Shown here piece after piece: positions 2 through 38,564 of a stretch of 64,000 bases of DNA. Source of the DNA: Iphione sp. A-MEVVRFRX5 (lineage: Eukaryota); the NCBI GenBank assembly GCA_976226885.1, contig OZ320317.1, forward strand, positions 49,042,001 to 49,106,000, given 5' to 3'. The notes under the pieces are model-generated. The model worked only from the letters and a program-made list of their open reading frames with translations. It had not been told where the DNA came from and did not search any database. The stretch's first letter is position 1, and each line of letters opens with the position of its first letter. The translations under genes were made by a program, and so were the position numbers.

Positions 2-636
2 CTGCAGGGCCACCGAAGGCGCGAGTTCAACGGACTGCTCCTGTCAGGAGAGTTTGGGGGCACAGTGATTGACTGGTTGATCGATACTGGCGCCTCGGCA
101 TCGCTCCTCTCCGCTAAAGTGTTCGAATCACTGCACGGAATTCCGCTTGGACCCGTGGACGCCCGCGTGTACGGTGTGGACGGCGCCCCGCTCGCAGTGC
201 GAGGATCCGTGGCAGGGATGGTGTACTTCCATGAAGCCGCGATCCCCATGCGAGCCCGAGTGGTGGATATGGAAGTGCCTGCTATATTGGGACTCGACTG
301 GCTGGACCGCTGGGAGGCGGTGGTGGACTCCCGGAAGGCGCAGGTGGCATTGGGCTGGATACCGGGAGAGACGGCGGCATCTTGGCGGTGGCAGCCGACA
401 CCACGGTCCCAGCGGGACAGGTCGGTTGGCTGCAAGTTGAGTGGCAGGGAGAAGGACTTCCGGGCGAGAGCATCCTGGCAGAGGCCAGCGGCCAGTTCGA
501 AGAAAGGTCGGGGCTGCGAGTGGCCAGGGCCGTGGTGTGTCCGCAGGAGGGCCGGCTGTGGGTGCCTCTGTGGAACCCGGGACCGGTCGCAGCCTGCGTC
601 TTCCGTGGTACGCAGCTCGGAAAGGGCATGTGGTGA
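2..636 (+). CDS. pol: pol N-terminal part: retropepsin-type aspartic protease plus PR-RT spacer; one apparent -1 frameshift near 365
   Basis: Frame is open from base 2: WLIDTGASASLLS (catalytic DTG at 83-91) and PAILGLDWL. It continues in the 382-636 frame (GGILAVAADTTVPAG...WVPLWNPG...GTQLG), a typical Gypsy spacer. Confidence 0.88.
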
Positions 637-3600
637 GCGACGTTGTGACCGCCTACGCGGCACGGGCGGAGGCTGTAGAGGCCGAGCAACAGGAAGCGGT
701 GAAACAGCTGTTAGACCAACTACCAGAAGGACTGTCGATCGATGACCAAGGCAGAATCCAAGCCATGCTGGAGGCACACCATGGCGTATTTCAGACACCG
801 AGTGGACCCTTGGGGTGCACCCCTGTAGTACAGCACCGGATCGATACGCAGGGGCACGCTCCCATCCGCCAACGGGCGCGGCGCCTACCGCCCCATAGGA
901 AGGCGGAAGTGGAGCGGGAGGTGGAGTCGATGCTGGAGAAGGGGGTGCTGGAACATTCCACCAGTCCGTGGGCTTACCCCCTAGTCCTGGTCAAAAAGAA
1001 GGACGGGAGCACCCGCTTCTGCATTGACTATCGGCGGCTGAATGCGGTGATAAAGAAGGACGCGTATCCCCTGCCTCGCATCGACGATACCCTGGATGCG
1101 CTGCAGGGGAACCGCTATTTTTCTGCAATTGACCTGGCCAGTGGCTACTGGCAGGTCAGGATGGACCCTGCCGATGCAGAAAAGACGGCCGTGTGCACTC
1201 CTGGAGGGCTATACCAATTCCGGGTGATGCCCTTCGGGTTGTGCAACGCGCCGTCGACCTTCGAGCGCCTCATGGAGTCCGTGCTGCGGGGCATGGTGGG
1301 CACGGACTGCCTCGTGTATCTGGACGACATCATTGTGCTGGGCCGCACGGTGGAAGAGATGTGCGCCCGTCTGGGGCGAGTTTTTCACTGGCTCCAGCAA
1401 GCCGGACTACCAGTCAAGGCCTCGAAGTGTCAACTGTTTCAGGAGGAAGTGGCGTACCTGGGCCACTGGGTGTCAGCCCGTGGTGTTGGGGTGGACCCAG
1501 AGAAGATTGCCGCCGTGACCGCCTGGCCTCGACCGCGCTGCAGCGAGGAGTTACGCGGGTTCCTCGGCCTCTGCTCATATTACCGGAGCTTTGTGGAGGG
1601 CTTTGCACGGATCGCGGCCCCCCTCCACACGATGGCGGATCGACTGGCGGAGTTTGCCTGGACGGAAGACTGTCAACAGGCCTTCGACCACCTGAAACAA
1701 CGACTGTGTTCGGCGCCGATCCTGGGCTACCCCTCCCTGCAAGGAAGGCTGTTGCTCGACACGGATGCCTCCGACACCGGCATCGGGGCAGTGCTGTCCC
1801 AGGTTCAGGACGGACAGGAGCGGGTCCTGGCGTATGAGAGTCGGACTCTCACCAAGCCCGAGCGGAATTACTGTGTGACACGACGGGAGTTGCTGGCCGT
1901 GGTGTTCGCCTTGCGCAAATTCCGCTGCTATGTGGGAGGGCGAAGCATCGAGATCCGGACTGACCATGACTCGCTACGGTGGCTATGCAGCTTCCGGGAG
2001 CCGCAGGGCCAGCTAGCCCGCTGGTTAGAAGAAATCTTCTGCCACGACTTGGAAATCATCCATCGGCCGGGTCGGAAACACGGAAATGCGGACGGCCTGT
2101 CACGACAGCGGTGCAAGCAGTGCACTAGGAAAATGATCCCAGAGGCCGTGGAGGTAGCCGCGGTCACAGCGACCCCGTGGGCGAGCGCTGCACGCCTCGG
2201 CAACGCGCAAGCGGCAGAGGAAGGTACGGAGACGATCCGCTGGGCCTTGGAGGTGGGGGGCGATCCCCCAGGGCTGGAGGTCGGGCTGACGTGGGAGGAG
2301 CGCCAGCTGCGGGCGGAGGGAGGCCGGTTGTCCTTGCGAGGCGGAGTGCTGATGCGACGCTGGGAGGCCGATGGCGGGCAGGCGGTGTACCAGGCCTACG
2401 TCCCCCGCACAATTCAGGCGAAGCTGTGGCAGGATGTTCACGCCGGCGCGCTGGGAGGTCATCTGGGCGCCGAGAAGACCCTCGGGTTGCTGCGGCAGAA
2501 GTGGTTTTGGCCCGGGATGCGCCGAGACGTGGGACGATGGATAGCAGCGTGCCAGGCTTGCCAGCAACGTAAGGCGCCGCCACGTTCGAAGCGGGCCCTG
2601 CTGCAGTCGCGACCAGTAAACGAACCCTGGGAGCTGGTGGCGGCTGACATACTGGGACCTCTGCCGGAAACGCCCCGGGGCAACCGGTATGTCCTGGTAG
2701 TGGCAGACCACTTCTCCAAGTGGACGGAGGCCTTCCCCCTGGCCGAGGCCACGGCTAAGGCTTCCGCAGAAGTCATCGTGCGGGAGGTGGTCTGCGGGTT
2801 CGGTCCTCCCCGGGTGTTCCATTCCGATCAGGGCCGCAATTTCGAGTTGGCACTCTTCACCGAGGTACTGCAGCTCCTGGGGGTGGAGAAGTCCCGGACT
2901 ACCCCGTACCACCCTCAGAGTGACGGCGTGGTGGAGCGCTTCAACAGAACGCTGGCTAACATGCTGGGCACCCTGGGGGAGGAGCGTCGGGCCGACTGGG
3001 ATCTGGCCCTTCCCTACGTGATGGCCGCTTACCGGGCTACCCCTCAGGGCTCGACCAACATGTCGCCAAATCGGCTCCTGTTCCACCGAGAGGTCAACCT
3101 GCCCGTGGAGCTCCGCTACGGGTACCCCGAGCCGGACGTGGTACAGCGGAACCAGTTCGCCAGCCAGGTAGAAGATGAGGTCCGGCAGGCCCACCAGCGA
3201 GTGGCAGGGCGCCTGAACCGTGTGGCGGAACACCGGCGTGACTGGTACAACCAGAAGGTCAGACCGCAAGGTTACACAGTCGGACAGAGGGTCTGGTTGT
3301 TTTCACCTCTTCGCCGCAAGGGGGTGCCCCACAAGTTCCAAGATTGGTGGGAGGGGCCCTGGCGAATAGAGGAGAAGCTGTCAGAGGTTACGTATCGGAT
3401 TGGTAAAGGCCCCAAGAGGCGGGTGGTCCACGCTGACCGGCTTAAGCCTGCTCGGGATGATGCTCAGGTCACTTGTGCCAGCCAGTCGGATAACCACGAG
3501 GGGGCTGGAACTGCAGCTGCTGAAGAGGGCGCAGCTGGGAGCGTAAGTGCGTTGTGGCACTCGCCGCTCTGTGGCGGAGCGGGCGCAGGAGCGGAGAACG

Positions 3601-4478
3601 AAGCTGCGACGTGGCGGGCAACGTCAGTGCGTACAAAGTCAGCACCGACCGCAGCTGCTAGAAAGGGCGTAGCTGGGAGTGTGCGTGCGCCGCCCAGGGA
3701 CGGAGAGGACGGAAGAGCGGGGAACGAAGCCGCGACGTGGCGGTCGACGTCAGTGCATGCAACGCAGGTGCGTGCAACGTCAACGCGCGCAGTGCCGGCA
3801 CGAGGCGCCCCCGCTCGGAATTCCACCGAACCAGACTGCAGGAAATGCAGTGGCGCCACTCGCCGTTGCGTCTCTCTGCCGCAGACCTCGTGTCATCCCA
3901 GCTGGAGCGAACGACGAAGTTGGAATCTCAGCGCTTCCGCAGGAGGAAACACAGCGAAAAGCGAGGCACGCCGCAACGACAGTAGGAGCAGCGTTGTGAA
4001 CAACCCCCGTCGGCGTATTCCAAGCCAGGTAGGCGCTTTACTCTGTGTGGCGCATGACTCGCCAGTGGGCGATAATAGGGACTGCAACGTTTGGACCAGC
4101 CGGGTTTGTTGCTGCAGGGTTAGGATGCGCAATAGTCGTACCGTCAGTACAGGCAGCAGCTTGGGGGTAAGGGCGCGGGAGGATGGCCGCAGGAGTAACT
4201 TTCGCAACTGCGCTCATAACAAGGGCGTGGAAGGGCCGGGGGCCGAACGCAGTAGCGATGATGTTCTTAAGGATAAGCGTGCTGTGGTCAACCGCTCGCC
4301 AGTAGGAAGGCCGAGCCACTTTTGTTCCATGGCAGGAACGACGTTTGCTGCTGTAGTAAACCGCTTGCCAGTAGGGAGGCCGAGCCACTTTTGCTCCATG
4401 GCGGGAACGACGTTTGCTGATCCTTGTTTTGTCTCCGCAGACGCACGACGCACTGTAGCCCAGCGCAACCGCAGGTGA
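627..4478 (+). CDS. pol: pol: reverse transcriptase, RNase H, integrase (HHCC, DDE, GPY/F-like) plus ~340-aa C-terminal extension; joined to the upstream part by a -1 frameshift near 627
   Basis: RT: YPLPRIDDTL, DLASGYWQV, MPFGLCNAP, YLDD (1317-1328). RNase H: LDTDASDTGIGAVL, TDHDSLRWL. Integrase: GHLG...CQAC, DILGPLP, HSDQGRNFE, YHPQSDGVVERFNRTL, WEGPWRI, VVHADRLKP (~3450). Confidence 0.96.
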   Translation, partial: HVVSDVVTAYAARAEAVEAEQQEAVKQLLDQLPEGLSIDDQGRIQAMLEAHHGVFQTPSGPLGCTPVVQHRIDTQGHAPIRQRARRLPPHRKAEVEREVESMLEKGVLEHSTSPWAYPLVLVKKKDGSTRFCIDYRRLNAVIKKDAYPLPRIDDTLDALQGNRYFSAIDLASGYWQVRMDPADAEKTAVCTPGGLYQFRVMPFGLCNAPSTFERLMESVLRGMVGTDCLVYLDDIIVLGRTVEEMCARLGRVFHWLQQAGLPVKASKCQLFQEEVAYLGHWVSARGVGVDPEKIAAVTAWPRPRCSEELRGFLGLCSYYRSFVEGFARIAAPLHTMADRLAEFAWTEDCQQAFDHLKQRLCSAPILGYPSLQGRLLLDTDASDTGIGAVLSQVQDGQERVLAYESRTLTKPERNYCVTRRELLAVVFALRKFRCYVGGRSIEIRTDHDSLRWLCSFREPQGQLARWLEEIFCHDLEIIHRPGRKHGNADGLSRQRCKQCTRKMIPEAVEVAAVTATPWASAARLGNAQAAEEGTETIRWALEVGGDPPGLEVGLTWEERQLRAEGGRLSLRGGVLMRRWEADGGQAVYQAYVPRTIQAKLWQDVHAGALGGHLGAEKTLGLLRQKWFWPGMRRDVGRWIAACQACQQRKAPPRSKRALLQSRPVNEPWELVAADILGPLPETPRGNRYVLVVADHFSKWTEAFPLAEATAKASAEVIVREVVCGFGPPRVFHSDQGRNFELALFTEVLQLLGVEKSRTTPYHPQSDGVVERFNRTLANMLGTLGEERRADWDLALPYVMAAYRATPQGSTNMSPNRLLFHREVNLPVELRYGYPEPDVVQRNQFASQVEDEVRQAHQRVAGRLNRVAEHRRDWYNQKVRPQGYTVGQRVWLFSPLRRKGVPHKFQDWWEGPWRIEEKLSEVTYRIGKGPKRRVVHADRLKPARDDAQVTCASQSDNHEGAGTAAAEEGAAGSVSALWHSPLCGGAGAGAENEAATWRATSVRTKSAPTAAARKGVAGSVRAPPRDGEDGRAGNEAATWRSTSVHATQVRATSTRAVPARGAPARNSTEPDCRKCSGATRRCVSLPQTSCHPSWSERRSWNLSASAGGNTAKSEARRNDSRSSVVNNPRRRIPSQVGALLCVAHDSPVGDNRDCNVWTSRVCCCRVRMRNSRTVSTGSSLGVRAREDGRRSNFRNCAHNKGVEGPGAERSSDDVLKDKRAVVNRSPVGRPSHFCSMAGTTFAAVVNRLPVGRPSHFCSMAGTTFADPCFVSADARRTVAQRNRR
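4281..4418 (+). repeat. 69-bp tandem duplication (23 codons) in the pol extension
   Basis: gctgtggtcaaccgctcgccagtagg...gacgtttgct is followed by gctgtagtaaaccgcttgccagtagg...gacgtttgct; protein AVVNR(S/L)PVGRPSHFCSMAGTTFA x2. Confidence 0.9.
4416..4440 (+). promoter_or_regulatory. Predicted 3' splice acceptor for a subgenomic ORF2 mRNA
   Basis: Branch-like CTGAT, pyrimidine tract ccttgttttgtctcc, then CAG ending at 4440. There is no ATG between 4441 and the Kozak-context ATG at 4635. Confidence 0.6.
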
Positions 4479-4634
4479 CGCCGCCCCGATCGACGCAGCT
4501 TCAGTGACCACAACGTGGCCGAGCGCTCGAACCATCAGCGCAGTTTCTATTGCCGCAGTAACAATCAGCGCAGGTTCCATCACCGCAGTAACGACCCCCG
4601 CAGCCCGGTTCGTCGCGCGGTGCCACTCCACGAC

Positions 4635-7213
4635 ATGGCGGAACACGACCCTACCCCCAGCACGTCAGACGTCCCCGATGGACCGCCCTATCCTTGCCAG
4701 GTGTGCAAGAAGGACTTCCAGGCGCTTGACTCTATGTATCAGCATGTGGCCTCGGCACACCAGGTCATTGGCTTTGGGTGGCTCTGCCCCTTCCCCAAAT
4801 GCCAAGGAGTAGCATTCAAGAGGAGGGCAGATTGGAAGCGCCATGCGGTTAAGGTTCATGGGTCGGAACGAGCCGCACACTCCACCAGCATAGAGCTTCT
4901 GAGATTTTCGGGGTACAACCCCACGTTCGGGGTGGTGCTAACCTGTCCCCCGGAGCGACAGGCCGAGTATGACCGTCGCAAGCGCCAAGACGAGCGCACC
5001 CGGCGGCGTGATCTCCTGACTTGGATCGGGCAGCGACGAGATCAGGGCGAACCCGAGGAGGACTCGGGCAACGACTCCCCCCCTCCCGGGGGCGCCGTTC
5101 CACCGTCAGGCTCCGCCACCGCCGGGTCGACCGCTGAGCCTGAAGAGGAGGAGCTCGAGGGGCCTCCGGGGGACGGCGGCTCCATCGCCGACGCCGGGCC
5201 GCCCCCCCCGCCAGGGGACGACGATCCCCTGCTGCCCCCAGCGGAGCCCGTCGCGGCCGGGACACCGACGCCGCGGGGCCCCCATACACCCTCGGGCACG
5301 GCAGGGTCGGAGGGTGCTGGACCGTCTTCTGCCACCACACCAGCCGAGAGCTCCTCATCCTCCCCGCCCCATCGGGAGGCCCCAGGCAAGACCTATGAGA
5401 AGAGCAAGGCCCGGAGCACGCCGGCCTCTTCCTGTGCCCGTACCGCGCCGCTGGTACCCACGCCGGCAGGCATAAACCTCGAGGGAGCCCCGGTGGAGAC
5501 CCACCGTCGGCAGCTGTTCCAAGAAGAGCCCACAGTAGTACCGCCGCCACCAGTACAAACACACCGCGAGCCCTCTCCCGACCGTCCGTCCTGGTCGGAC
5601 TATGAGGATGCCATCGAGCCGCCGTCTTCGGCGCTGGGGAGCAGGCACGGGGTGCCCCCCGAGGGCGCACGCCATTTCATCGCCCTCGCCGTCGAATGGG
5701 AGGCCGCGTGCTGACATCATCGTCAGAGGACGAGCCACGCACCCCAGGGAAGGGGTGGTGGCCCAGCCCCGCGAGGTCCAGGACACCGGGCCACCGGGGT
5801 CAGCGGGGTCGCAGCCCTCCCCCCGCGAAAGTAAGCCGAACCGAGGAAGAAGAGGAGGTGCGGTTAGATCGTTGTCTGGGACCCGGGTGGGAGCGGGCGG
5901 ACGTCCACGCCACCACCGTCATCGTGGAAGACTCACCAGAGGCTTCACCTCGGCTGGCTCAAAAAAAAGCACAGCCGTCACCCCGCGCCGAGATGCCGGA
6001 TACTCTGCAGCAGGCCATGGCCGCCACCCTTGGGGAGGTGGTCTGGCTGGCGGATGACAGTTCACCCCACTCTGATGCCGGGGTAGAACTGACAAAGGCC
6101 CCAGCCACTACAGCCGAGCTGGATGAGGAGGTGGCGGTGTTGACCGCCGATTCCACGGGACACCTCCGCGCTGGGGACCGCGGAAGATTGGTCCGAGGAG
6201 CTGCCGGAGGACGGGGGAGAAGGGTCGGCCCGGTCTCCAGTACCAGGAGAGGACGGGAGGCAGGAGGATGTACCGGCTCCACCCCGTACAGACGACAGGT
6301 CCACGACGGGCAGCCCGGTCGAGGGGGACAGGAGGCCTCCAGCCCCCGGGACCACCCCCACGGCAGGGCAAGGACACGGTCCAGAGGAGCAGCCGGGAGG
6401 GCACGCGGGGGAATACACCCCGCCCACGACGGTTGGAGTAACGGGGCAAGGAGAGATCGCCACCCCCGGGGGGAGCCAGGGCCAACCAACGCTGACTGGA
6501 GTGGCGACGCTCACCCTAATAGGAGCCACACCCCCGGGTGGAGCAGCGGCAACGCCAGACGGAGACCAACCAGATACGGAGGAACGCCCTCCAGCCGGGC
6601 CGACAGGGACGGCACTGCAAGGCGCGGGGCGAGCGGCACAAACGCCCAGGAGGGCCACGACCCCTGTCCGCACTCTTCCGCCGCTGGGGCCCCCCCGAGG
6701 GCGGGGGGCTGGTTCTCCAATTGCGCAGATTAACCCAGCGGCATCTCCAGGCAGGGGCCGGGGGGCGGCAGCAAGCCGACAGGGAGCACACATGGAGCCT
6801 CTCCCCGACGCCCGGGCGGGGCGCGTTACGCATACAGGTGGTCCTATGAGGACATTTCCCCCCCGGCCTCCGAGGACGAAGGCATTCCCGATGCAGTATA
6901 CCAATGGGCAACGAGCCTGCACGTGTCCCGGCAGTCGGCACCACCACCCGGCTGGCAAATCATCAGCGCTTCGAGCAGGGCGGAAGTGCAGATATCTGGC
7001 TGGAATGAGGTCAAGATCCACTTGGATCAAACCCTACGGTTCCGGCTGTCGGGAGAGGGGGCCGCCTGCGACCTAATGGGGTGGCACGCCCGGCGGCCAG
7101 GGACTCTCACGCGTGGACGGGCCTACCACCGCTTCACCTCCTGGGTGGACTGTCAGGAGGGAGAGGAGGTAGTGGCCGAAATCAAAGAATTATTCGTGGT
7201 AAGACTGGGTTAG
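4635..7213 (+). CDS. Gypsy accessory ORF2: two N-terminal C2H2 fingers, long Pro/Gly/acidic disordered region, ~130-aa globular C-terminal domain; three apparent frameshifts (~5700, ~6145, ~6820)
   Basis: gacATGG at 4635; CQVCKKDFQALDSMYQHVASAH (C-x2-C-x12-H-x4-H) and CPFPKCQGVAFKRRADWKRHAVKVH. Compositionally coherent reading passes through ORFs 4515-5714, 5696-, 6144/6501- and 6923-7213, ending ...KELFVVRLG*. Confidence 0.75.
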
Positions 7214-7379: not shown

Positions 7380-7391
7380 GAGAGGGGGCAG
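7380..7391 (+). other. Polypurine tract
   Basis: gagagggggcag immediately precedes the LTR-initial TG at 7392. Confidence 0.85.
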
Positions 7392-7726
7392 TGTAGCGGC
7401 GACATGTGGCCACGTTGCACGGTGCAAGGTTGCATCGTGCCGGGTGGCACTGTGCACTGTGCATTGATGCTCAGGAGTGGAGCACAGTGTGCAGTGACGC
7501 CCGGTGCTTTGTGCTTCGTGCTTTGTGCATCGTGCTTGGACGCATCGTGCAGCGTGGCACCATGCACTGCTGGGGGGAGGGGGGCTCCAGCCTATATAAG
7601 CAGGGGTTGGAGCCCAGGGTCTTCAGTCTGGAGTTGGGGGTCTTACCATACACATCTCCTTCAGCAATAAAGTACCATATTCATACTTCCTGGTCATGTC
7701 TTATTTGCGGAGCGGCCGACGTTACA
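7392..7726 (+). repeat. 3' LTR (335 bp)
   Basis: Starts TGTAGC and ends GTTACA (imperfect terminal inverted repeat). TATATAA at 7593-7599 and AATAAA at 7666-7671. Composition drops abruptly to AT-rich after 7726. Confidence 0.9.
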
Positions 7727-12076: not shown

Positions 12077-13373
12077 CTACATTCTCCTATTGGGTTTGAT
12101 CAGTCCGTACCCTACCAAGGATTTTTTTAAATCTTCACCTACATCTTGATTAACCTTATCCACTATTGTCAATAGGTCAAATAGTATCTCATTAGATGGT
12201 ACAAGATTATTGTGAATATGGTATCTGTTCCTGGGACTGGGCTTATAGATTTCACTGCTAACAACTGACTGACTAGTAGGTTCAGGTACGTATTCTTCTG
12301 GTGCTGTGTTTAGCGATATGAGGTCCTCCTCTTCTGGTAGGTGTACCGGTTTGGAATTTTCGGTGTTGTCGGGCGATAGCTGGCTGCTTTCGGTGGCTGT
12401 TGCGGTCTTGTCCTTGCTTGGCTCTACATCATCTTCATCATCATTGCTGTCTGTGTCTTCCTCACTGCTGCTGTCTGATTCTGACATCGCCAGGTCTTGG
12501 TCTAGGTTGATGTAAAGGCCATCATCGTCGCTTAGCTCAGGTAGGTGTATGGTGCGTGCTGGTCATTCTTGGCGGTCTTTGGTTGCTGGAACCACCAAGG
12601 TTGGAGATTTCTTCGGGGATTTACGTTTGATGCCCAGTAATGGATGTTGATGTCTGCCTGACTTCCTTATAGTAGGATCAGGCAGTTCAGGGCTCATCTG
12701 GATTACTCTTTTTTCTAACGTCTCATGTCTTCTTATACGTTCAGTGATGGATAGTAGTTTTTCTGTTGTTGGAGAGTTGTTGGGCGGTGCTTTGCTCACT
12801 GTTGCCGTGGCAGTTCGTGGGGGTGAATTGGATTGTCTCGGTGTGGAGTGTTCATGACTGGTAACAGGTGTTTTGATAGGGACTTCAGTCTCTATACATC
12901 GTTTCTTCTCCACTGGTTGTGAAGTTTCCACGGTTGCGGGGGTTTTTTCAATGGTTTTTGGGTTGTCTTTCAACTTGCCACTGTATGGTTGGACCTTTTG
13001 TTCTGCAAGTGAGAGGTTGATATATCAGTCAGATTTGATAGTTTTCTGGTGTGATGTGTTTTGCAGGAATAATACGCTTGTTTGATTTCACCTTTCTGTG
13101 ACATCTCACTTTGTCTATGATGGGTATTGAGATAGGGTGTTCATATTGGTGTAATCTTAGTGCATGGCATCTCAGTGTGCTTGGTCGTGTGAAGCTGGAT
13201 TGGCACAGAAAACACGGGTACTTACCCCGTTTGGACAGTTCTTCTTCATTTGTGTGAAGCTTGTTGAGATGTCGTAATAGGGCTCGAGTGCTGCAGAGCC
13301 ATTTGTTGCAGAAGGCACATTTGGCTGGTTGTTGGTGATTCTTCTTGGTTTTTGCTGTGCTTTGTTGAGGCAT
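12077..13373 (-). CDS. PLE-borne C2H2 zinc-finger protein. Predicted exon 1 13373-13226, intron 13225-13003, exon 2 13002-12077 with one in-frame TGA (12563-12565); unspliced form is a 114-aa two-finger protein
   Basis: CAFCNKWLCSTRALLRHLNKLH and CFLCQSSFTRPSTLRCHALRLH (both C-x2-C-x12-H-x4-H). Donor G|GTAAGT and acceptor CTGAC...ctctcacttgCAG are phase-compatible with ORFs 12563-12973 and 12077-12487, which are in the same frame. Confidence 0.7.
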
Positions 13374-38375: not shown

Positions 38376-38564
38376 TTTTCTCCCTGAAATTCAGCATTTT
38401 TCGGCACTTTCTCCCTGAAATTTGCCGTTTTCAGCACTTTCTCCATGGAATTTGCCTCAATCTCCATGAAATAATTATTTTTCGGCACTTTCTCCCTGAA
38501 ATTCGCCATTTTTTTGGCACTTTCTTCATGGAATTTGCCTCAATCTCCATGAAATGCCATTTTT
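38376..38564. repeat. ~30-bp minisatellite with higher-order structure
   Basis: Units such as cactttctccctgaaatttgccgttttcag, with a repeated block gcactttctccatggaatttgcctcaatctccatgaaat. Confidence 0.9.

Follow-up and report, generated by a model that had tools for sequence, protein, structure and literature searches.

Analysis of the window (a 64-kb stretch of DNA) revealed a Gypsy element in which a zinc-finger ORF, here called ORF3, lies between pol and the polypurine tract (PPT). The ORF3 of Gypsy elements is customarily taken as env or an env remnant. Judged from sequence, it is well supported, although indirectly, that this ORF3 is a non-env ORF in the env position with predicted spliced expression, because its predicted acceptor is non-random and eight other Gypsy loci show the same layout of acceptor, ATG and zinc finger. 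The features identified are listed in Table 1.

Table 1. Features of the Gypsy element in the window.
Feature	Position	Strand	Remarks
Aspartic protease	2..370	+	Pfam Asp_protease_2, E 4e-7; truncated by window start
pol RT-RNaseH-integrase	636..3458	+	Pfam RVT_1, RT_RNaseH, Integrase_H2C2, rve, Integrase_p58_C
pol frame past integrase	3459..4475	+	Open 339 codons; Ser/Thr/Ala/Arg-rich
Predicted splice acceptor	4417..4440	+	Branch-like motif, pyrimidine tract, CAG; top acceptor in element
Leader, 194 nt	4441..4634	+	ATG-free; pol/ZF frame: stop 4476-4478, then 52 open codons
ORF3 first segment, 359 codons	4635..5714	+	Two fingers, basic stretch, Pro/Gly/acidic disorder
C2H2 finger 1	4695..4760	+	Helix positions -1, 2, 3, 6 = A, D, S, Q
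C2H2 finger 2	4785..4859	+	Helix positions -1, 3, 6 = R, D, R
Arg/Lys-rich stretch	4974..5009	+	Candidate NLS or RNA-binding motif (putative function)
Second stop-to-stop segment	5606..6733	+	Different frame; protein-like (acidic) ~5715 to 6150
Third stop-to-stop segment	6144..7076	+	Protein-like (Pro/Gly/Thr/acidic) ~6180 to 6720 by composition
Last segment	6734..7213	+	From 6815 predicted alpha/beta, strand-rich domain
Polypurine tract	7380..7391	+	
3' LTR, TG...CA, 335 nt	7392..7726	+	TATA at 7593, AATAAA at 7666

Organization of the element and its pol

The element possesses the pol order PR-RT-RNaseH-INT with Gypsy-type domains (Pfam), together with a PPT and a TG...CA LTR, and thus belongs to the Ty3/Gypsy (Metaviridae) LTR retrotransposons. 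Protease and RT lie two frame changes apart (tblastn frames); gag, the PBS and the 5' LTR fall outside the window. Among 8000 candidates scored, 1499 were Gypsy-like pol relatives at E ≤ 1e-20. The nearest relative of the integrase region shows 52% identity, and of 116 sequences compared, the window pol departs most often from the conserved columns (9 of 100). In the tree it groups with P0004/P0005 (support 1.0 and 0.99). When 636-4475 was searched with Pfam for a chromovirus-type chromodomain after the GPY/F module, none was found at E ≤ 1, and neither a second copy of the element nor Rfam or tRNA matches were found within the 64-kb window.

Past the integrase, the pol frame contains no stop over 3459-4475, compared with 10 and 16 stops in the other two frames, and was open in none of 5000 shuffles. 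Duplications in this stretch are spaced 126, 138 and 69 nt, and 3-periodicity trained on pol does not favour the pol frame there. ORF3 (ATG 4635) and pol share one frame, with a single stop at 4476-4478 between them. Both the open extension and the shared frame were missed in the first-pass annotation.

Predicted splice acceptor and leader

A strong acceptor at 4440 had been proposed earlier, and on a simple pyrimidine scale the CAG at this position scores 9.5, compared with 5.5 for the next best in the element. A YTNAY branch-like motif is present approximately 20 nt 5' of this CAG. Dinucleotide shuffles of 3461-4634 reached the score in 5 of 2000 cases, and in 2 of 2000 when the branch motif was included; the acceptor at 4440 is non-random. 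Candidate alternative acceptors lie at 3884 and 4335, and donor-like sites at 3543, 4029 and 4167. The claim that no ATG precedes 4635 is literally correct for 4441-4634 and carries no significance, since 489 of 2000 shuffles were also ATG-free; the ATG-free leader was therefore dropped as evidence. The start context gacATGG reported at 4635 is present, with G at -3 and +4. The open codons of the leader are Arg/Ser-rich and carry a 30/15-nt repeat, with six RS/SR dipeptides in the pol/ZF frame versus zero and two in the remaining frames.

Composition of ORF3

Analysis of the first segment recovered the two C2H2-type fingers (CxxC/Cx4C..H..H) described previously. Each finger keeps its four ligands and shows the classical C2H2 pattern Cx2-4C-x12-Hx3-5H with core F and L; finger 2 is Cx4C with 13 residues ahead of the first His, and the linker between the fingers is non-canonical (8 residues). 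Matches to Pfam zf-C2H2 were all below the curated cut-offs (E 0.002, finger 1 only), and the top PDB sequence match of the fingers is a C2H2 protein (E 2.6e-5). The R/D/R of finger 2 is what we take, by the recognition code, to be a GCG-type DNA-reading pattern.

The description of ORF3 as one ORF did not hold. The ATG frame stops at 5714 after 359 codons and the remainder lies in other frames, as three further stop-to-stop segments (5606-6733, 6144-7076 and 6734-7213); the distance from ATG 4635 to the final stop is 2579 nt, which is no multiple of three. What the first-pass annotation gave as ~600 aa plus a globular tail spans three frame changes that it did not mention. Small introns behind the frame changes were considered and rejected, the nearby acceptors being limited to a weak one at 6728 (score 3.5). 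The periodicity score of the third segment is ambiguous. It is likely that this copy is non-functional.

The final stop occupies 7211-7213, 166 nt from the PPT at 7380, practically as first estimated (~167 nt). The reported absence of a transmembrane segment agrees with the hydropathy, the top Kyte-Doolittle 19-mer mean (KD19) ranging from 0.40 to 1.04 across the four ORF3 pieces. The signal peptide and transmembrane anchor expected in the ORF3 of env-bearing Gypsy elements were, judged by KD19, not found. N-glycosylation sequons occur once in each of two segments and not at all in the other two.

Homology and fold searches

By sequence comparison, the window ORF3 is without a homolog in the databases searched. 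Comparison with longer proteins gave 445 candidates for the tail, none at E ≤ 0.01, and 44 for the finger region, likewise none. Against 1.84 billion representatives the tail yielded three matches, all of them multi-stretch matches to long proteins, which were rejected; the two inspected are internally repetitive. The Atlas search gave nothing usable for the tail, whose recognition was low (1563), and placed the ORF3 N-terminus in generic finger clusters. A PDB sequence search with the tail returned a single match (E 0.3), and tblastn against phage returned none. The tail was modelled from a single sequence (pLDDT 62); Foldseek with this model found nothing at E ≤ 0.001, and its best VIA match, an anti-sigma factor (Z 6.4, rmsd 3.3 over 103 residues), was discarded as being in the background range.

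Homology to other zinc-finger ORF3s, including those of clade Z (defined below), was tested by profiles and not found. The clade Z profile matched the window ORF3 at 11.9 bits (hmmsearch), in the fingers only, and hhalign assigned the fingers a probability of 30% and the tail one of 0.15%. On near-identical profiles, the 60 PDB chains among the matches listed scored 17-35 bits, and almost all of these are C2H2 proteins of hosts; ligand-fixed shuffles equalled the finger similarity to other ORF3s in 35-436 of 500 cases. At the level of sequence, the likeness of the fingers to those of other ORF3s does not exceed the generic level.

The same layout in other Gypsy elements

A total of 51 loci were collected, of which 26 had less than 500 nt and four more less than 1000 nt of downstream DNA, leaving 21 with at least 1 kb. 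A sense ORF of at least 150 codons follows the integrase in 11 of these 21, and eight of the 11 encode zinc fingers (L005-L007, L009, L023, L037, L038 and L045); in all eight, a predicted YAG acceptor lies 5-16 nt before the ATG. This YAG ranks first in five of the eight. The acceptor score is at least 4 in seven of the eight, compared with 21 of 878 ATGs inside pol, a result favoured by the choice of ORF3 ATGs so as to maximise acceptor score. In L007, identical LTRs enclose ORF3, which is therefore inside the element; in L023, L037 and L045, a PPT-like tract follows the end of ORF3 after 153-390 nt. The KD19 of the eight ATG-started ORF3s never exceeds 1.19. Thus the other ORF3s resemble that of the window in acceptor, ATG, finger(s), disorder, a variable C-terminal domain and, where located, an end before the PPT. 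The finger of L038 sits in a second, downstream frame.

An in-frame zinc-finger tail was found in 15 of 117 pol relatives, here defined as clade Z (among them P0066, P0099 and P0105); the protein set could show in-frame Pol-finger cases only. In these 15 proteins, as in locus L005, a single reading frame runs from Pol into the ZF module through a spacer of 5-8 residues; their pols are 59-98% identical. Directly before the first Met of the tail, [C/F][R/S] occurs in 15 of 15 cases versus 88 of 3325 background Mets, and in the DNA of L005 this motif is a real acceptor (score 11.5). Finger 1 of clade Z is of the C2HC type. The clade Z pol is 41-43% identical to that of the window, which lies outside clade Z; support for its link to the group containing clade Z is 0.22. 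The other zinc-finger ORF3 loci fall into at least three pol lineages besides that of the window. Tree 1 left out 10 listed proteins with fewer than 480 aligned residues, including the finger-tailed P0081, and tree 2 held 41 chosen proteins and 25 of the 51 loci, L023 being absent.

The C-terminal parts of these ORF3s differ. A TatD nuclease domain with intact motifs ends ORF3 in L037, L038 and L045, and the C-terminus is coiled-coil-like in L006, L007 and L009. For the C-terminal domain of clade Z, an alpha-crystallin fold (Foldseek E 0.04, probability 0.84-0.87) was rejected, as it is absent from the VIA rows; the best VIA match is a trypanosome mitoribosome assembly protein (Z 7.1, rmsd 3.2, 83 residues).

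It is an evenly balanced question whether these ORFs form an uncatalogued third-gene class in the env slot, widespread in Gypsy elements of aquatic invertebrates: a spliced ORF with a zinc-finger address module, disorder and exchangeable C-terminal cargo. The class would span at least four pol lineages, some of which also join it in frame to the integrase. Its carriers would count as complex retroelements, equipped with regulatory genes like those of retroviruses and lacking an envelope. The cargo would then be a beta-rich domain in the window and clade Z, as modelled, and the coiled-coil-like or TatD end in the loci named above.

Proposed role and alternative explanations

We tentatively propose that the window ORF3 may encode, by splicing, a nuclear protein other than env that regulates its own element, either as a DNA-binding activator or as an anti-silencer. 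Element-encoded nuclear factors acting on their own element are exemplified by Tas/Bel1 of foamy viruses, a self-encoded activator encoded beside the 3' LTR, and by the anti-silencer VANC of VANDAL elements, both from element classes different from Gypsy. A share of the LTR-driven transcript would lose gag-pol through splicing of an upstream donor to 4441, and translation of the resulting subgenomic mRNA would begin at ATG 4635 or in a more 5' exon joined in the same frame. In intact copies the product would be a nuclear protein of approximately 860 residues. The finger pair, as address module, would bind the element's own DNA, plausibly the GTGC/GCAC words repeated in U3. The C-terminal domain, together with the long acidic/Pro-rich region, would attract host factors that maintain transcription of the element, with the cargo varying by lineage.

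The acceptor strength, the recurrent layout at eight loci and the R/D/R of finger 2 at -1/+3/+6 argue for this proposal, as does the U3 array, which is non-random (17 copies in 201 nt, reached in 0 of 300 shuffles; tandem-repeat periods 7, 14 and 15 by TRF). Against it, ORF3 is broken in this copy and without homolog, finger 1 is without typical base-contact residues, U3 contains few of the predicted GCG sites (5 GCG/CGC vs 24 GTG/CAC), and the distance from acceptor to ATG is 194 nt as opposed to 5-16 nt elsewhere. Furthermore, seven of the eight supporting loci come from one assembly, and the word array, absent in four of four other ORF3 elements tested, was rejected as a general feature of such elements. 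The composition of ORF3 fits a putative nuclear regulator, for which Cer1 CERV is a precedent (PMC10309623).

It is rather doubtful that the spliced ORF3 acts instead on RNA, like HIV Rev or CERV, by binding unspliced genomic RNA and licensing its nuclear export. The element would need such export because of its strong acceptor, and CERV, a nuclear Cys-finger protein from a spliced mRNA, is required for gRNA export (PMC10309623). The basic stretch is consistent with this role, as is the leader, whose ZF-frame reading is RS-rich (6 per 50 aa) like the pre-finger stretches of L037, L045 and L038 (5, 7 and 10 per 50 aa). However, in this copy the RS-rich leader codons come after a stop and before the ATG, and 3461-4440 holds no unusually stable RNA structure, the lowest z being -2.0 (150-nt windows, 30 shuffles each; the 5' part of the intron lies mostly outside the window). 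An unlikely reading takes the ZF module as also, or mainly, a C-terminal extension of Pol/integrase that directs integration or anchors the intasome on chromatin, a role played in chromoviruses by the chromodomain. Clade Z and L005 favour it, and so do the pol frame of the window, open for 339 codons past the integrase in the frame of ORF3, and the duplications either side of the single stop, whose spacings (126, 138, 69, 30 and 15) are all multiples of three. Yet the stop separates pol from ORF3 in this copy, pol terminates ahead of the ORF3 ATG in seven of the eight DNA loci and approximately 13 residues past the integrase in the closest pol relatives, and the tail is without pol-like periodicity.

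That ORF3 is a non-functional passenger or relic, namely GC-rich sequence, captured or of low complexity, that includes a short finger ORF and is followed by unrelated or non-coding segments, is also unlikely. The three frame changes, the lack of homologs found, the low Atlas recognition of the tail and a last segment that is only modestly unusual (open in 124 of 5000 shuffles) would suit a relic. The non-random acceptor, all four ligands in both fingers and a first segment (4635-5714) open in 3 of 5000 shuffles would not, and the final stop lies ahead of the PPT as in other ORF3 elements, and the layout is found again in 8 of the 21 loci. A divergent env or fusogen is effectively refuted, barring a signal peptide encoded by an upstream exon together with a transmembrane anchor in intact copies: the position between pol and PPT and the predicted splice acceptor are those of errantivirus env-F (PMC12992720), whereas ORF3 has no hydrophobic 19-mer above 1.04, few sequons, zinc fingers with long disorder, and no viral glycoprotein among the BFVD matches of its tail model.

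Comparison with known systems

CERV of C. elegans, encoded by an LTR retrotransposon, is a nuclear accessory protein other than env. Its mRNA is spliced, and the protein combines a putative zinc finger and a basic NLS with structured domains that flexible linkers connect; it has no obvious homology beyond nematodes (PMC10309623). It resembles the window ORF3 in being non-env and in having a finger and a basic stretch; splicing and nuclear location are shown for CERV and presumed for ORF3. CERV has a C4-type finger and exons that lie in or overlap the gag frame, whereas ORF3 follows pol and has two C2H2 fingers. The env-F ORF3 of errantiviruses likewise lies between pol and PPT, has a splice acceptor of the kind predicted in the window (PMC12992720), but is a glycoprotein, unlike the window ORF3 with its fingers and disorder and without a signal peptide-like or transmembrane segment. 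Bdelloid Vesta and Juno carry family-specific non-env ORF3s after pol with a captured DEDDy exonuclease and GDSL esterase (PMC5408684), which parallel the TatD cargo; its abstract and early Results describe no zinc-finger ORF3, and the window tail is without a fold match. The plant aORFs of Grande, RIRE2 and Retand TRP28 are antisense and plant-specific, with a TRP28 domain (PMC7264820, PMC11963269), and thus differ from spliced sense C2H2 ORFs.

The earlier statement that this is not a described Gypsy ORF is in line with the literature searched, which yielded no account of a Gypsy ORF3 with C2H2 fingers or TatD; such ORFs could nonetheless be described in supplements, subscription journals or Repbase Reports. 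The main text of two mollusc/annelid LTR surveys (PMC6238403, PMC8556966) mentions no zinc, env, ORF3 or additional ORF. Non-env ORF3s are already known (CERV, rotifer ORF3s), and the zinc-finger class was not found in the literature searched. Within that literature, TatD, retrotransposon and Gypsy occurred together only in a wheat genome paper.

C2H2 proteins are familiar as the host's weapon against transposons. If a recurrent spliced zinc-finger ORF3 is real, this picture would be inverted, and envelope-less animal retrotransposons would encode their own nuclear regulators, like complex retroviruses; the ways in which such elements escape host silencing and export unspliced RNA would become testable. 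The TatD-bearing variants offer an enzymatic handle. Such ORFs may also inflate the counts of host zinc-finger and TatD genes in invertebrate annotations.

Anatomy and state of the window copy

The first 7726 nt of the window are the 3' part of an LTR retrotransposon, with a GC content of 60-70% against a host background of about 40% and a domain order (protease, RT, RNase H, integrase) that is of Ty3/Gypsy type. The best relative over the integrase region was 52% identical; the few named relatives are from fishes, pearl oyster and echinoderms. The window copy is decayed and probably inactive. Two frame changes were found between protease and RT, and the copy departs from 9 of 100 conserved pol columns against a median of 1, the most among 116 sequences; divergence of the lineage may contribute to these departures. 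The CpG observed/expected ratio of the flanks is 0.70-0.78, pointing to a host of invertebrate type; the U3 array is rich in TpG/CpA (observed/expected ratio 1.59 over the LTR).

Features of the window element and of its relatives
Feature	Location	Remark
Locally stable predicted RNA structures	window 1001-1250, 6001-6150	z -3.4 to -3.9
Open pol-frame tail	window 3459-4475	duplications frame-preserving
Acceptor-like sites in this tail	window 3884, 4335
Donor-like sites in this tail	window 3543, 4029, 4167
Inverted repeat, 27 nt	window 3600-3626 / 4476-4502	74% complementary; downstream arm begins at the single stop; may be chance
Predicted ORF3 acceptor	window 4440
Two zinc fingers	window 4695-4859	all zinc ligands present
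PPT	window 7380	3' end of element, before LTR
U3 array of GTGC/GCAC words	window 7392-7592	self-complementary (fold z about -4)
LTR		335 nt, TG...CA; carries TATA and AATAAA
TatD-ending ORF3s	L037:2851-6129; L038:9000-11342; L045:7458-9920	one finger and an RS-rich stretch precede TatD
Clade Z DNA locus	L005:919-2124	as in the 15 finger-tailed proteins, Pol and the zinc-finger module lie in one uninterrupted frame, with a strong acceptor just ahead of the module's Met
Finger-tailed proteins		P0009, P0011, P0017, P0018, P0020, P0028, P0029, P0035, P0063, P0066, P0069, P0081, P0086, P0099, P0105

ORF3 of the window and the pol frame

Analysis of the region between pol and the PPT revealed a real but broken non-env zinc-finger ORF3. 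Additional ORFs are a known kind in LTR retrotransposons, and this one is a zinc-finger variant. The acceptor described as strong in the first-pass annotation is indeed the top-scoring one in the element, its score being reached by 5 of 2000 shuffles, and ORF3 is probably spliced. The 194-nt leader is free of ATG as described, but this is unremarkable, 489 of 2000 shuffles being likewise free. Consistent with the earlier description, both fingers are present and the ORF3 segments all fall short of the hydrophobicity that a membrane anchor requires. The single continuous ORF was not found: the ATG frame ends at 5714, and three further segments of protein-like sequence lead on to the final stop at 7213. 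We infer that these segments were once one protein of about 860 residues.

ORF3 shares the frame of pol, which the first-pass annotation had overlooked. This frame stays open for 339 codons beyond integrase (0 of 5000 shuffles) to a single stop at 4476-4478, followed by 52 open Arg/Ser-rich codons up to the ATG. Long duplications in the pol-ORF3 stretch are spaced by 126, 138, 69, 30 and 15 nt, the exception being one short 16-nt pair spaced by 299 nt, and the long-duplication spacings hint at selection on a reading frame across the supposed UTR. Counting against such selection, pol-like periodicity is absent from the open tail and the nearest pols stop about 13 residues after integrase. The additional acceptor- and donor-like sites in the tail make further exons possible.

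Zinc-finger modules in related elements

Of the pol relatives, 129 in all, 117 could be aligned as far as the end of integrase. Fifteen of these go on in frame with a C2HC finger and a C2H2 finger, followed by an acidic disordered region and, in most of the proteins, by a domain rich in beta structure. Fourteen of the 15 were taken into the tree, where they form one clade with two tail-less members (clade Z, support 0.996), nested in a group containing a Pinctada protein, with the window pol outside. The residues [C/F][R/S] occur at most two residues before the first Met of the tail in all 15 proteins, which are related and weigh as about ten lineages, compared with 2.6% of background Mets. 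A YAG acceptor would read in this way when translated, and the acceptor so predicted for clade Z is borne out by the DNA of L005, a member of the clade (score 11.5, rank 1 of 74). With an open Pol-finger frame and a strong acceptor, fused and spliced products are both possible. Two pol relatives of the same broad Gypsy group (P0053 and P0121) carry a C-terminal chromodomain (PF00385), a domain known for targeting integration.

Scanning of GTDB bacterial and archaeal representative genomes with the pol alignment gave up to 51 Gypsy loci, many in one assembly (Sedimenticola sp.), indicating eukaryotic contamination; they are evidently host DNA within bacterial assemblies. At least 1 kb of downstream sequence was available for 21 loci. 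Ten of these have no long sense ORF downstream of pol, three have a finger-less sense ORF whose acceptor is weak or missing, and eight (seven from one assembly) have a zinc-finger ORF3 with YAG 5-16 nt upstream of an ATG picked to maximise the acceptor score, which is on our own simple scale. Pol terminates ahead of this ATG in seven of the eight, so ORF3 there needs its own mRNA. The eight span three pol lineages (L023 unplaced), the window being a fourth. Mutually homologous ORF3s were found in L006, L007 and L009 and again in L037, L038 and L045; the latter three terminate in TatD, a nuclease domain (Pfam E 1e-33 or better), and have five of five TatD catalytic motifs, the L038 ORF3 being split across two frames. 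A Gypsy ORF3 with a TatD domain was not described in the literature searched. The zinc-finger ORF3 thus recurs, and its C-terminal cargo would be exchangeable.

No direct homologs of the window ORF3 were found in protein, PDB sequence, phage tblastn and cluster-atlas searches, and no fold was found with the predicted model of its C-terminal tail; these negatives are weak, because transposon ORFs are probably poorly represented in protein sets. The clade Z profile gave 11.9 bits for the window fingers, and ordinary host C2H2 proteins scored higher (17-35 bits); the hhalign probability was 30% over the fingers but 0.15% over the tail. In pairwise comparison with five locus ORF3s, ligand-fixed shuffles did as well in 35-436 of 500. 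The window ORF3 would work like these ORF3s; the similarity scores do not decide for or against common descent.

Proposed role of ORF3

Beyond the observed anatomy and its recurrence, we infer that the ORF3 mRNA would be made by splicing and that the protein would be nuclear; it may act on DNA, in self-activation or anti-silencing of its own element. Tas and VANC are known element-encoded factors of this kind. Such a DNA-level role is tentatively favoured because of R/D/R in finger 2 at the base-contact positions of the C2H2 code, the acidic, Pro-rich disordered region and the GTGC/GCAC array in U3 (17 copies, matched by 0 of 300 shuffles). Against it, the triplet predicted for finger 2 differs from the GTGC/GCAC word, and the array is absent in the four other ORF3 elements tested.

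An RNA export role like that of Rev or CERV, the accessory protein of C. elegans Cer1, is possible but less likely; CERV itself is a precedent, and RS/Arg-rich stretches are present. Clade Z and the open pol frame point to a module fused to integrase for targeting, which we regard as improbable. For the family, a relic is a poor candidate, though the window copy is probably inactive, and env is very improbable.

Comparison with described systems

CERV, a nuclear protein unrelated in kind to env, is made by splicing, and export of the gRNA depends on it (PMC10309623); rotifer elements have enzymatic non-env ORF3s (PMC5408684), and plant elements have antisense aORFs with proposed DNA binding (PMC7264820; PMC11963269). 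Env-F is spliced with varied upstream exons (PMC12992720), and an ostracod Gypsy has a coiled-coil pol extension of 250 residues (PMC7998251). No zinc-finger ORF3 came up in the passages or term counts taken from PMC11952523, PMC2774666, PMC3286476, PMC8220671, PMC6238403 and PMC8556966, and none was described for Gypsy in the main text of the open literature searched.

Other features of the window

Two consecutive acidic Ser/Thr/Pro-rich frames with one stop between them occur on the minus strand at 12077-13024, possibly a decayed non-LTR ORF1 or a host exon. A short degenerate tandem repeat family with a unit of about 30-50 nt is present at 38398-38555.
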